A model generated the notes under the pieces. The model searched no databases. It saw only the letters and a list, made by a program, of their open reading frames with translations, and was not told the DNA's origin. Source: an uncultured delta proteobacterium (lineage in GTDB: Bacteria; Desulfobacterota; Desulfobacteria; Desulfobacterales; SG8-13). Taken from it: a stretch of DNA of 64,000 bases. Below are positions 27,910 to 31,571 of this stretch, in pieces (the stretch's first letter is position 1; each line of letters opens with the position of its first letter). The stretch spans positions 696,938 to 760,937 of the forward strand of contig CAWKCK010000018.1 of assembly GCA_963848135.1 (NCBI GenBank), in the 5' to 3' direction. Both the position numbers and the translations under genes were made by a program.

Positions 27910-29236
27910 GGGAGTGTTCAATATTCTGTGTCAGCCTGTTTTTTGATTAGCAATCATATCAGAGCCTTAATTCTTTATCCAGCCTTCCTTCAAAAAATAT
28001 GGCTAACTGAGATATGGTCAAAGACCAGTTTTGAACCGGCATCGTCCATTTTTTACTGGCATTCTGAATACCCATATAGAGCAGTTTGAGCAGGCTGTCC
28101 TGGTTTGGGAAAGCCCCTTTGGTCTTGGTTAATTTTCGGAATTGCCGGTGAACCGCCTCAATGGTGTTGGTCGTGTAAATGATCCTTCGAATATCATCCG
28201 GATACTTGAAAAATTGACTGAGCCGCTCCCAGTTGTTTCGCCAGGATTTGATGACAATTGGATATTTGTTGTTCCACTTGTCTTCAAGCCTGTCTAACTC
28301 AGACTCGGCCAAATCCTTGTTAGTGGCCTTGTATACTCGCTTGAGATCGACCATGAATTCTTTTTGATTCTTTGAACCAACATATTTCAAGGTGTTGCGA
28401 ATTTGATGCACAACACAAAGTTGGACTTCCGTTTGGGGAAAGATTGTTTCGATGGCTTCCGGAAATCCCTTAAGACCATCGATACAGGCGATCAGGATAT
28501 CGTCAACACCTCGGTTGGATAGATCGGTCAGAACCTGCAACCAGAAGTTGGCCCCTTCGTTCTCTGAAATATACAGCCCAAGGACTTCTTTGCGGCCTTC
28601 AATATTGACACCAAGGATCGTGTAAACAGCTTTGCTGAAGACCTTGCCGTCCTCACGAATTTTGTAGTGAATGGCATCCAGCCAGACAATGGGATAAATC
28701 GATTCTAATGCCCGGGCCTGCCACTCTTTTACTGTATGGATGATTTTATCGGTAATCGCCGTCAGGGTGCCCTTTGAGACCTCAATGCCATAGATATCCT
28801 CAAGATGGGCGGATATATCTTGATAGCTCATCCCCAGGCCATACAGGGCCAGGATTTTTTCTTCAATCTCATCACTGAGGGTCGTTTGGTGCTTTTTGAT
28901 CAGCTTGGGCGAAAATGTACCGGCGCGATCGCGCGGTGTGTCGAGTTCAAAAGATCCATTGAGAGTCTTGATCGTCTTTTTGCTCTTGCCATTCCTGCGG
29001 TTGGCAGCTATCTCCTGGCCGAGGTGGGAGTCTATCTCCCCTTCGAGGGCTGCTTCCGTCAGATTCTTTATCAGTGGGGTGAGAACCCCGTCTTTACCGG
29101 TGAGGGGCTTGCCTGATTGGATGGCTTTGAGGGCTTTCTGGAAATCAAATTCGCTGTCGTCTTTTGCCATGTCAGTCTCCTTTTAGCTTTATATATCAGC
29201 TTTTTATTTGACTGACACAAAATTATGAACACCCTC
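27910..29236 (-). mobile_element. IS256-family insertion sequence, 1327 bp
   Basis: Imperfect ~25-bp IRs gggagtgttcaatattctgtgtcag / ctgacacaaaattatgaacaccctc, and an 8-bp target duplication ACTTTTTT at 27902-27909 and 29237-29244. Confidence 0.95.
27959..29170 (-). CDS. IS256-family transposase
   Basis: NRRNG, TPRDRAGTF, VWLDAI, CIDGLKGF, QLCVVHQIRN and IYTTNTIE motifs. Confidence 0.96.
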   Translation of the reverse strand: MAKDDSEFDFQKALKAIQSGKPLTGKDGVLTPLIKNLTEAALEGEIDSHLGQEIAANRRNGKSKKTIKTLNGSFELDTPRDRAGTFSPKLIKKHQTTLSDEIEEKILALYGLGMSYQDISAHLEDIYGIEVSKGTLTAITDKIIHTVKEWQARALESIYPIVWLDAIHYKIREDGKVFSKAVYTILGVNIEGRKEVLGLYISENEGANFWLQVLTDLSNRGVDDILIACIDGLKGFPEAIETIFPQTEVQLCVVHQIRNTLKYVGSKNQKEFMVDLKRVYKATNKDLAESELDRLEDKWNNKYPIVIKSWRNNWERLSQFFKYPDDIRRIIYTTNTIEAVHRQFRKLTKTKGAFPNQDSLLKLLYMGIQNASKKWTMPVQNWSLTISQLAIFFEGRLDKELRL

Positions 29237-29887
29237 ACTTTTTTAGCGAATTGATAAGACCTTTGATCATCGATGCGATTTCTATACCGGTAGTCTCAAA
29301 TTTTTCATAATCCTCATCTGAAATCCATTTGACTCTTCTGAAAACCTCAAGAAGTGTCATGGTTTCATAGAGCGATCCGCGGGCTATATAACAATATTGA
29401 ATGAATTCTTTCTTTGAGAAACGGCCTTTTCCTTCCCTCCGGGGCGTAGCCTATTTTTGAATGCGATTTTTATCTAACCATTTTATTCGTTTACCTCTTG
29501 ATCCTTTTAACGATCGTTCCAACCACCTCGCTTCGTTTTTGCTCGCAGCTTTTTCAAAAGCGACCAAAGTCCAGGGTCTATCCTGAGCAGTTGATTTAAC
29601 ATATCCCGAATTATGGTATTTTAGACGTTGATCTATATCTGCTGTATGTCCGATATATATTCGTCTATTTGCTAAACTTTCTAACGCATAAACACAGTAC
29701 ATATTTAAAATCCCTACGGGGCGGAGCCTGCCAAATTCATTGAAATACTTGTAGAACTCGATTCAATCTGTTCCAGGAGACGATAATGCTTTCGATCGGT
29801 CGCTATATTCTCAACGGCGGTTATAACATCCACAGCAAAATTAACCGCCTTATCCCATACCGATAAATCTTCATACCCAAACCGCAT
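29235..29887 (-). pseudogene. Four-helix-bundle protein (23S rRNA IVP-like) interrupted by a 293-bp insertion
   Basis: 29887-29729 encodes MRFGYEDLSVWDKA...SISMNLA (53 aa) and 29435-29235 encodes EGKGRFSKKEFIQYCYIARGSLYET...SLKK* (66 aa). Joined they give an intact 119-aa ORF. Confidence 0.9.
29451..29702 (-). CDS. Small GIY-YIG nuclease (UPF0213/YhbQ-like)
   Basis: YCVYALES...IYIGHT.D...RLKYHNSG..KST...RPW...EARWLE motifs. Confidence 0.9.
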   Translation of the reverse strand: MYCVYALESLANRRIYIGHTADIDQRLKYHNSGYVKSTAQDRPWTLVAFEKAASKNEARWLERSLKGSRGKRIKWLDKNRIQK

Positions 29888-29927
29888 TATCCTTTTTCCC
29901 CTATTCCTCAGACTTGTTCCTCACTAC

Positions 29928-30028
29928 CTTTCAGCTTTGAGCCTTGAACTTTGAGCTTCTCCTGCTTTGAGCTTTCACCTTTGAGCGCTAATTCCTTTGA
30001 GCTTTGAGCTTCATTTGCTTTGAGCTTC
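29928..30028. repeat. Degenerate heptamer (tttgagc) tandem array upstream of the four-helix-bundle gene
   Basis: ctttcagctttgagccttgaactttgagc...gctttgagcttcatttgctttgagcttc. Overlaps the ABC ATPase stop codon. Confidence 0.8.
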
Positions 30029-30694
30029 TATTATTTGCCCATCGCGCATCTTGAAGACATGGCTGATGATGGCGGCATCGAAGACCAGTGGATCGTGACT
30101 GGCGATCAGCAGGGTTTTCCCTTCCTCCGCGAGGTCGGCGGCAATATCCAGAAATTCACGTGACAATTCAGAGTCCAGGTGCGCCGTCGGTTCATCGGCG
30201 ATGAGGATGACCGGATCGTTTATCAGGGCCCGTGCAATCGCGGTACGTTGGCGTTCCCCGCCGGAGAGCTCCTCGACTCGCCGACCGGCCTTGGTTTCGA
30301 TCCTCAAGCGCTTCAGGATCGTCATGGCCCTGTCCTTGATGGCACCAAACCTTTCACCGCTGGGATATGCCGGCAGCATGGTGTTCTCGATGACACTAAT
30401 GCCCTTGATCAGATTGTGGTCCTGAAAGACAAATCCGAAGGTCGATCGCCGGATCTGCGCCATGAATTTTTCCGGCAAGCTGGTGGTTTCCTGACCGTTT
30501 ACGAGAATCCGCCCGGTCGTCGGGCGGCTCATGCAACCGATTACGGACAGCAGGGTCGTTTTCCCCGATCCACTGGGCCCGATGAAGGCCGCGATCGTGT
30601 TAGGCGCAATCGTCAGGTCGATGTCCCCGATGGCGGTGAACTCATTGGCCCGGCCGGCGTTGTAGGTCTTGGTTATTTGTTTCAGTTCGATCAT
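30011..30694 (-). CDS. ABC transporter ATP-binding protein (LolD-type)
   Basis: GPSGSGKTT, LSGGERQR, IADEPTAHLD and ASHD motifs. Confidence 0.95.
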   Translation of the reverse strand: MIELKQITKTYNAGRANEFTAIGDIDLTIAPNTIAAFIGPSGSGKTTLLSVIGCMSRPTTGRILVNGQETTSLPEKFMAQIRRSTFGFVFQDHNLIKGISVIENTMLPAYPSGERFGAIKDRAMTILKRLRIETKAGRRVEELSGGERQRTAIARALINDPVILIADEPTAHLDSELSREFLDIAADLAEEGKTLLIASHDPLVFDAAIISHVFKMRDGQIIEAQSK

Positions 30695-31151: not shown

Positions 31152-31571
31152 TCACAGATGATTCATTATAGTTTGTCGTTTTCGGTGATTATCAAAAATT
31201 TTTCTCTTCACCTCAGGAAGTGGGCCAAAATTCAATAACAGTCCAACTTCGACTTTGGTTGCCTTGAGATAGTTAAGCAGCTGCGCCTCGTTTTCTATAA
31301 CCAGTGATTTGGCAGCTTTAATTTCTACGATCACCTTGTCTTCCACCAGTAGATCCGCAAAATATTCACCAATGATTTCGCCCTCGTAGATTACCTTAAT
31401 AAATGATTGAGGATTGACTGCTATCTTTTTCTTTTTCAACTCAATCACCATCGCGTTTTCATAAACCTTTTCCAGAAAACCGTATCCAAGCTGATTATAC
31501 ACCTTATAAAAGCACTGAATGATTTTTTCGGTTAATTCTACGAACTTGTAATTCTTAAAATCTGTGTCCAT
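31152..31571 (-). CDS. GxxExxY protein (PD-(D/E)XK-like)
   Basis: LGYGFLEKVYENAM, ADLLVEDKVIVEIKA and QLLNYLKAT..GLLLNFG motifs. Confidence 0.93.
   Translation of the reverse strand: MDTDFKNYKFVELTEKIIQCFYKVYNQLGYGFLEKVYENAMVIELKKKKIAVNPQSFIKVIYEGEIIGEYFADLLVEDKVIVEIKAAKSLVIENEAQLLNYLKATKVEVGLLLNFGPLPEVKRKIFDNHRKRQTIMNHL

Follow-up and report, generated by a model that had tools for sequence, protein, structure and literature searches.

Insertion sequences of the IS200/IS605 type are very small elements that carry imperfect palindromes in the same orientation at both ends, insert in one orientation 3′ of a short sequence without target duplication, and have miniature derivatives that lack an open reading frame (ORF). 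GIY-YIG homing endonuclease genes occur both free-standing and encoded in introns (phage T4 Seg proteins, I-TevI, I-BmoI), and the REP/REPIN repeats are mobilised by RAYT tyrosine transposases; to our knowledge, the GIY-YIG class is not among the known bacterial transposases. The Ssn nucleases are single-domain GIY-YIG proteins of 94 amino acids (aa) that, according to Chenal et al. (2025, Nat Commun; PMC11893778), cut only single-stranded DNA (ssDNA), next to a hairpin motif flanking their own gene, show no activity on double-stranded DNA or RNA, and accept a hairpin assembled from two strands. The motif is found on both sides of the gene in 42% of the homologs, a layout that the authors describe as "identical to" an insertion sequence, with IS200/IS605 as their point of comparison. 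The term "fractured genes" has been used for genes that a homing endonuclease gene interrupts (Dassa et al. 2009; PMC2677866). Here we describe a 293-nt unit, consisting of a GIY-YIG nuclease gene between two short end motifs, that splits a four-helix-bundle gene in an uncultured delta proteobacterium (contig CAWKCK010000018.1, positions 696,938–760,937; this whole stretch of 64,000 nt, whose own numbering is used throughout, is called the window). We estimate a probability of about 0.9 that this unit is a copy of a mobile, site-specific nuclease element.

The split gene and its insert are on the minus strand and comprise the following parts, with copy numbers referring to the complete elements compared below:

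29436..29728, minus strand: whole insert, 293 nt (left end motif, spacer, nuclease gene and right end motif); its exact removal joins PF05635 positions 47 and 48
29712..29728, minus strand: left (5′) end motif GGCTCCGCCCCGTAGGG, the first bases of the insert on the coding strand; near-invariant in 27 of 27 non-redundant copies
29703..29713, minus strand: variable spacer of 11 nt from the host-frame stop to the nuclease ATG; 6–20 nt and not conserved in sequence (n = 27)
29451..29702, minus strand: gene for a single-domain GIY-YIG nuclease of 83 aa (PF01541, E 2.4e-15)
29436..29451, minus strand: right (3′) end motif GGCTACGCCCCGGAGG, the last bases of the insert on the coding strand; near-invariant (n = 27 copies)
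29729..29887, minus strand: N-terminal half (N-half) of the four-helix-bundle gene, 53 codons, ATG at 29887 (PF05635 positions 1–47, E 1.3e-8)
29235..29435, minus strand: C-terminal half (C-half) of the four-helix-bundle gene, 66 codons plus stop (PF05635 positions 48–106, E 3.2e-14)

The break in the host gene is exact, because its two pieces (29729–29887 and 29238–29435) match adjoining positions of PF05635, and TIGR02436 gives the same split (profile positions 1–43 and 44–109). An earlier analysis of the letters alone (hereafter the original prediction) had placed a 293-bp GIY-YIG insert between NLA and EG of the host protein, and these limits turned out to be exact: deletion of 29436–29728 joins ...SMNLA to EGKGRF... 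and restores 119 codons (53 + 66), with a possible slide of one base (a G) at the boundary. Also as proposed there, the insert consists of an 83-aa gene and little else, namely an ORF of 252 nt, stop codon included, plus 41 nt. An in-frame TAG at 29714–29716, inside the left motif, ends the host N-half ORF (29714–29887) after ...NLAGSAP, and the nuclease ATG follows 11 nt further on; the stop codon of the nuclease gene, also TAG, overlaps the right end motif, and the C-half has no start codon of its own. An intein was rejected on the grounds that the host frame hits a TAG four codons into the insert and that the lengths of the copies (279–302 nt) do not run in multiples of 3.

The GIY-YIG domain occupies the 83-aa protein throughout (residues 1–71 match positions 1–74 of the 78 in PF01541), leaving no separate DNA-binding domain or extension. 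We found at least 136 homologs, and the 120 listed are 60–94% identical to it and mostly of 83 aa (81–85 aa). Residues Y5, Y16, G18, R26, H30, N31, and E62 are invariant among 29 homologs; we take the conserved catalytic residues of GIY-YIG enzymes to be two Tyr, in the GIY and YIG motifs, one Arg and one Glu. The nearest solved structures are the UPF0213 proteins 1zg2 (BH0048; E 7e-8) and 1ywl (EF2693), followed by SLX1. The nuclease ORF is under purifying selection, with a ratio of non-synonymous to synonymous substitution rates (dN/dS) of 0.14–0.30.

Comparisons included six loci from species genomes, which are metagenome-assembled genomes of Deltaproteobacteria/Desulfobacterales type plus one Verrucomicrobia and one Colwellbacteria, and 79 distinct metagenome loci, drawn from the best 80 of 261 confirmed matches. 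Forty loci have a nuclease with 52% or more identity to that in the window; a PF05635 half directly adjoins the element in 39 of them, and both halves do so in 31. Counting only loci with 200 nt or more of sequence on the side in question, the N-half (upstream) was present in 35 of 36 and the C-half (downstream) in 31 of 33; in the lone exception to direct adjacency (L059) the N-half is farther off, behind an extra small insert. After removal of duplicates, 27 complete elements of 279–302 nt remained. The original prediction had proposed looking for its repeat pair beside other GIY-YIG genes, and these 27 non-redundant loci all have it.

All 27 copies occupy a single junction, AAY-ATH-GCN/GAR-GG (the slash marks the point of insertion), and are co-oriented with the host gene. 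Upstream of the junction, A-9, A-8, and T-5 are conserved in 27 of 27 copies, G-3 in 26 and C-2 in 24; downstream, G+1, A+2, and G+4 are conserved in all 27 and G+5 in 26. No copy has a target duplication, the only ambiguity being of 1 nt. The host genes belong to around ten very different subfamilies, with EGKGRFSKKEF, EGYSRKGDKEL, EGYGRYTPADR, EAWRKRRYKA, EGDERGSNKD and others following the junction. The same site in four-helix genes is used by other nuclease lineages, 39–48% identical to that in the window, in 10 of the 45 more distant loci.

Several observations on individual loci concern the choice of site. In L131 (G050, contig 487), the copy apparently lies two codons further downstream, after ...NLAEA, at a look-alike GCT/GG site, and its right motif bears a mini-insert; this position hints that the target is read as a DNA sequence rather than as a protein motif. 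The genome that contains the window has a second split four-helix gene, on contig 4 at around 212.0–212.6 kb (L016, 1359–1980): it is a decayed copy in which this site is taken by another GIY-YIG lineage (32% identical), and an IS3-type transposase gene truncates the N-terminus of the host. Finally, nuclease relatives that are 40–50% identical (L026, L067–L069, L078, L082, L083, L089, and L090) adjoin tRNA-like sequence and are flanked on either side by short, directly duplicated fragments of tRNA, as if this protein family also had another class of target.

The end motifs are near-invariant in the 27 copies, versus a mean column identity of 72% for the element, and the third codon positions and silent sites vary. 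Even in the two loci L021 and L034, whose nuclease ORFs have a synonymous divergence (dS) of 0.50 and whose spacers differ, both motifs are identical. As the original prediction stated, 19-nt repeats occur at 29434–29452 and 29711–29729 with 17 of 19 positions identical; 0.11 such matches are expected by chance per window, with two reached in 1 of 100 shuffles, and the two ends of the insert are the sole copies in the 6.03-Mb genome (allowing up to two mismatches). The term "direct repeat" is, nevertheless, not the best description. The 5-nt arms are perfect inverted repeats, so that the left end in the top strand equals the right end in the bottom strand, and only the central CCC and the outer G runs are directly repeated; the ends are better described as terminal, perfect inverted-repeat arms with a directly repeated centre and G flanks. 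Since the arms are inverted, within one strand they can form a helix of 5 + 5 bp interrupted by a CCC/CCC loop; the 5′ junction is then 2 nt from the stem and the 3′ junction 1 nt. This pairing, which had also been anticipated, appears both in the single-strand fold of the element and in the consensus fold of the 27 copies, where RNAalifold recovers the terminal helix only, with nine pairs kept in 24–27 of the 27 sequences, and no conserved internal structure. In an alternative fold, the ends do not pair with each other and each makes its own hairpin, with a single mismatch in the middle. As ssDNA, the fold of the element is no stabler than those of shuffled sequences (z = -0.38), and its minimum-energy fold includes the terminal helix. 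The ends of other lineages are unrelated in sequence and are, likewise, mutually complementary (12/12 positions in L093, 11/12 in L081, 8/8 in L074, and 10/11 in L016).

The presence of repeats at both ends had led to the proposal of attL/attR-like sites, with a 277-bp circle being integrated or excised by recombination between the 19-bp direct repeats. We consider this model very improbable. The direct repeats are certainly real, and hybrid ends that make a perfect palindrome, as a crossover would produce, occur in 3 of the 27 copies (L033 on the left; L042 and L055 on the right) as well as in solo and ORF-less forms. However, each of these hybrid ends differs by a single base and point mutation therefore suffices to explain them, whereas the asymmetry between CTCCG..CGTAG on the left and CTACG..CGGAG on the right is kept in the other 24 copies. 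The element encodes no recombinase, and the ends of sister lineages are inverted rather than direct repeats. The arithmetic of the original prediction was right in that recombination would delete 277 nt, with 16 nt and a frameshift left behind; however, no 16-nt GGCTCCGCCCCGGAGG footprint was found in a four-helix gene among the motif matches examined. No circle was seen either, and neither a circular nuclease cassette nor the attL/attR part of the proposal has support; the idea of a mobile, homing-type cassette stands in its other parts, given the conserved, functional ends and the specificity for N(I/L)AEG.

The relationships among the nucleases do not match those among their hosts. L033 and L040 have hosts that differ by 7% and nucleases that differ by 31%, and the nearest nuclease to that of L033 is found in L029 (17% different), in a host that is 68% different; the element therefore moves between unrelated host genes. 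Co-phylogeny was discarded as proof of an ancient insertion, because the Mantel correlation (r = 0.51) is driven by close pairs and the nearest neighbors disagree. Likewise, a genome of the same genus (G008) contains an element 71% identical in DNA inside a different four-helix subfamily. The original prediction had also called for empty alleles, and one was found: P0121, an uninterrupted protein of 120 aa that is 92% (N-half) and 94% (C-half) identical to the halves in the window and contiguous through ...SMNLAEGKGRF..., so the empty state of this host lineage exists. In a search for the orthologous empty site in 40 relatives we did not find the host gene, and only ends of insertion sequences (IS), the upstream repeats and one related element were matched.

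Forms lacking the nuclease gene were also found. Miniatures of 31–38 nt include L118 and L120, in which the left motif is fused to the right motif in 31 nt, and some full elements have related ORF-less forms of 32–38 nt inserted in the CCCC loop of their end motifs. Loci L051 and L052 differ by an insert of 31–32 nt in the CCCC loop of the left motif, with nine mismatches over 1,101 other positions; this difference is a recent presence/absence polymorphism, without target duplication. Of 401 scanned genomes of the class, 140 contained the end motif (one mismatch allowed), and low counts mean little because reversed-pattern controls also match many genomes; a few genomes, though, have 9–31 motif copies with zero or very few control matches. 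Doublets of end motifs without an ORF, such as GCCTCCGGCCCGTAGG plus GCCTACGCCCCGGAGG, are present in 9–31 copies per genome in G350, G236, G089, G264, and G332. These sequences resemble REP/REPIN repeats in being short imperfect palindromes with GTAG/CTAC, arranged as inverted doublets and reaching up to 31 copies per genome. Y1 transposase genes exist in all five repeat-rich genomes, but a RAYT/Y1 transposase was rejected as their mobiliser, since the motif is near none of ten Y1 loci (around 1.5 kb on each side); a further difference is that the autonomous form carries a GIY-YIG gene instead.

These data also bear on whether the insert is a classical homing endonuclease gene, whose product would break the empty site coding for NIAEG so that repair copies the cassette from a filled allele. 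The insert would then persist by homing at the population level, and the flanking halves would look selected by having recently been part of working genes. The likeness is clear, with a GIY-YIG gene at a fixed spot in one highly conserved coding motif, always in one orientation and single-copy per genome, with both filled and empty alleles, and with low dN/dS in the flanking halves; in addition, the syntenic loci L021 and L034 are compatible with homology-directed copying. The host of L038 is chimeric, with a C-half of the L021 subfamily and an N-half of another, and this is compatible with co-conversion of one flank, as expected from homing, or with recombination through the element. On the other hand, the element is not in an intron or intein, and it moves between hosts that seem too different for homology-directed copying, with 68% divergence in protein and only around 14 nt of shared sequence left for such repair. 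Homing would not need conserved termini, yet the termini are the best-conserved part, and ORF-less derivatives are found at non-homologous, non-genic sites and inside end motifs. Additionally, the 83-aa protein lacks a separate DNA-binding domain, and characterized relatives of like size cut only ssDNA (PMC11893778). Classical homing is therefore, in our judgment, possible but rather unlikely.

The condition of the host gene was evaluated in the same set of loci, a sample picked through the nuclease and thus biased. The nuclease is intact in 26 of the 27 copies, whereas the host frame is open in 24 of 26 N-halves and in 21 of 25 C-halves. A single metagenome contig (L027, 150–2154) has two filled copies of the host gene of the window 1.6 kb apart, the first of which has frameshifts in both host halves and an intact nuclease gene. 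Most simply, the host gene is dead, inactivated by the element. A read-through fusion of the nuclease and the C-half was discarded, as it would be in frame here and in most copies, but is out of frame in L023, L048, L053, and L057. We did not find promoter-like or terminator-like sites in a scan of 29150–30100, and this lack of a promoter, the co-orientation with the host gene and the host stop codon, in every copy inside the left motif and 6–20 nt before the nuclease start, together suggest termination-reinitiation; expression of the nuclease is thus probably parasitic on the host gene.

A different view is that the four-helix protein is still made, because the insert is intron-like or reversibly excised, with the end helix marking its exact removal from RNA or, in some cells, from DNA. 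It draws on the pair L021/L034, which is syntenic, with 76–81% DNA identity over the whole of the shorter contig (1.28 kb), and whose element is single-copy in the genome of L021 (G419). In this pair, dS is equal across the N-half (0.47), nuclease (0.50) and C-half (0.44), dN/dS is 0.14 in each, and non-synonymous changes are significantly depleted (P = 2e-4, 6e-6, and 6e-5, respectively). The mostly open host halves, the absence of a start codon in the C-half and the location of the junctions at the foot of a conserved helix that brings both together would all be in keeping with removal. Still, recombination within populations, with empty alleles that work, or several rounds of re-invasion can also account for the low dN/dS of the host halves, and host halves are broken in 4 of 25 (C-half) and 2 of 26 (N-half) cases in which the nuclease is intact. 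ORF-less relatives are found outside genes, where splicing has no role, and an Rfam scan of 29000–30100 (E up to 10) gave only three chance matches. A group I or other self-splicing intron was in fact rejected, with no Rfam match better than E 1.4, only 41 nt outside the ORF and a terminal helix as the only structure. No spliced or skipped joint was found in Logan contigs of four public runs, which is a weak test as no run contained half of the stretch. A 151-nt contig from an RNA library gives exact cover of the C-half, and another crosses the left junction of a relative unspliced, which is weak evidence given that such a library may include DNA. In one DNA contig, the right end of the element is followed by a different C-half. 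In addition, Ssn enzymes do not act on RNA (PMC11893778). We thus find it unlikely that the insert is removed, and equally unlikely that removal is guided only by a helix of 5 + 5 bp and performed by an 83-aa nuclease and/or host enzymes, leaving the split gene functional. The intron-like alternative of the original prediction is thus not supported.

The best reading of these results is that the insert belongs to a family of minimal, autonomous DNA elements of around 290 bp, specific for site and orientation, and composed of one gene, for a nuclease of the UPF0213/Ssn type, and two end motifs of 16–17 nt. Its anatomy shares with IS200/IS605 elements the palindromic ends, the lack of target duplication, the oriented insertion 3′ of a short sequence, the small size and the existence of miniatures. 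The differences are that the only ORF is that for the GIY-YIG protein, with no HUH/Y1 transposase (PF01797), that a hydrolytic GIY-YIG enzyme has no strand transfer via a covalent intermediate, and that the two ends pair perfectly with each other. The element would hence work like one of the IS200/IS605 type and yet not be one, as the HUH transposase is absent. Compared with the Ssn systems, it has a single-domain GIY-YIG protein of similar size (83 aa against around 90) and short pairing or hairpin motifs on either side of the gene; its imperfect palindromes, one at each end, are conserved in the 27 copies. It departs from them as a compact 293-nt unit at one codon of a protein gene, single-copy and without hundreds of repeats; for Ssn cassettes, PMC11893778 gives no account of mobility or of target specificity.

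This IS200/IS605-like anatomy, together with the properties of the Ssn nucleases, led us to favor an ssDNA element with hairpin ends. By analogy with Ssn, the nuclease would recognize the folded ends in ssDNA, where the two ends may pair with each other or each may form an imperfect hairpin, and would cut at both junctions, just outside the stem (2 nt away on the 5′ side and 1 nt on the 3′ side). The released element would then be placed 3′ of GCN in a look-alike target, by a route resembling the peel-and-paste of IS200/IS605 that would employ a hydrolytic nuclease and host ligation or repair. Lacking its own promoter, the nuclease would be expressed from the transcript of the host gene, whose frame would stop at the TAG of the left motif, with translation restarting 6–20 nt downstream, and the host gene would be inactivated. 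We rate this specific gene-disrupting, hairpin/ssDNA mechanism as only somewhat more probable than all other routes taken together.

Several results weigh against this interpretation. Transposition, a cut site, a circle or an excision product were not observed, and the read contigs had no corresponding joints; besides, a hydrolytic nuclease alone is unable to rejoin DNA. Within the subfamily (27 copies) the terminal helix shows no compensatory changes, and for this reason support for end pairing comes only from the comparison between lineages. The dN/dS of 0.14 in both host halves of L021/L034 would not be expected from a dead gene, if the insert is ancestral to the pair. None of the five motif-richest genomes has a close homolog of the nuclease, with a single weak match of 34%. 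By size and layout the nuclease is a candidate member of the Ssn clade (cd10448), but the published consensus of the Ssn hairpin repeats (SRM) has no matches in either strand of 29381–29780 or in the whole window, and the nearest solved proteins are labeled UPF0213. Lastly, this genome, a complete chromosome of 7.7 Mb (G420), G419 and G423 each have one copy of the element, and at least two perfect core targets (AACATCGCAGAAGGA and AATATAGCCGAGGGT) are unoccupied in this genome, which indicates that it is not spreading freely.

These last observations would also fit a resident cassette, domesticated or decaying, that is no longer mobile here, with the nuclease retained for some host role on ssDNA, as proposed for SsnA in Neisseria, and the split gene as a fossil. 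The purifying selection on the nuclease ORF points in the same direction, and domestication of such cassettes has been proposed (PMC11893778). However, the family has clearly moved recently elsewhere, the ends of this copy are perfectly kept, and the genome has no array of cognate hairpin repeats, but only the two copies at the ends of the insert, making residency improbable, slightly more so than removal of the insert.

We found no description in the literature of four-helix-bundle genes with a GIY-YIG mini-element at their NIAEG site; the end motifs and the term "four helix" are absent from the main text and 12 of the 14 supplementary files of PMC11893778. The element resembles both nuclease-plus-hairpin cassettes and homing-type selfish genes. 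If its nuclease does drive the movement, it would define a type of insertion sequence powered by a GIY-YIG nuclease. At around 290 bp it would then be among the smallest self-contained mobile elements, and it would provide ssDNA-specific nucleases of the Ssn type with a natural role as the engine of selfish DNA with hairpin ends. The defined set of enzyme, ends (two, of 16–17 nt) and target (14 nt) might serve as a programmable tool for ssDNA. If, instead, the insert were removed, it would represent a new protein-dependent bacterial intervening sequence with a "core" of around 40 nt. For annotation, the element explains the small "four helix bundle" genes that are often called as fragments beside genes for a "GIY-YIG nuclease family protein."

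Two other features adjoin the split gene:

27959..29237, minus strand: insertion sequence of the IS256/Mutator family (PF00872, E 1.8e-107), directly next to the stop codon of the host gene
29920..30030, no strand assigned: short repeats of the CTTTGAGC type, arrayed immediately before the host start (repeat families D1 and D2)

The IS256/Mutator-family element codes for a transposase of 403 aa and ends exactly on the stop codon of the split gene, so this stop may be supplied by the IS end. Its terminal 66–67 nt (29171–29237) are 100% identical at three other sites of the genome. Short tandem-repeat arrays also precede four-helix-bundle genes elsewhere (L052, L048, L050, and L107), with repeats of the CTTTGAGC type here and of GAAACTT, CAATTGAAC and GAAGCTG types in other loci; in L107, a further set of repeats, partly complementary to the tandem ones, comes after them, and the gene is placed as if in the loop of a long imperfect hairpin. 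At 1.3 kb from the split gene, the window has a gene for a GxxExxY/PD-(D/E)XK_3 protein (31152–31571, minus strand; TIGR04256, E 8.5e-40), which we take to be another small family known from rRNA intervening sequences.

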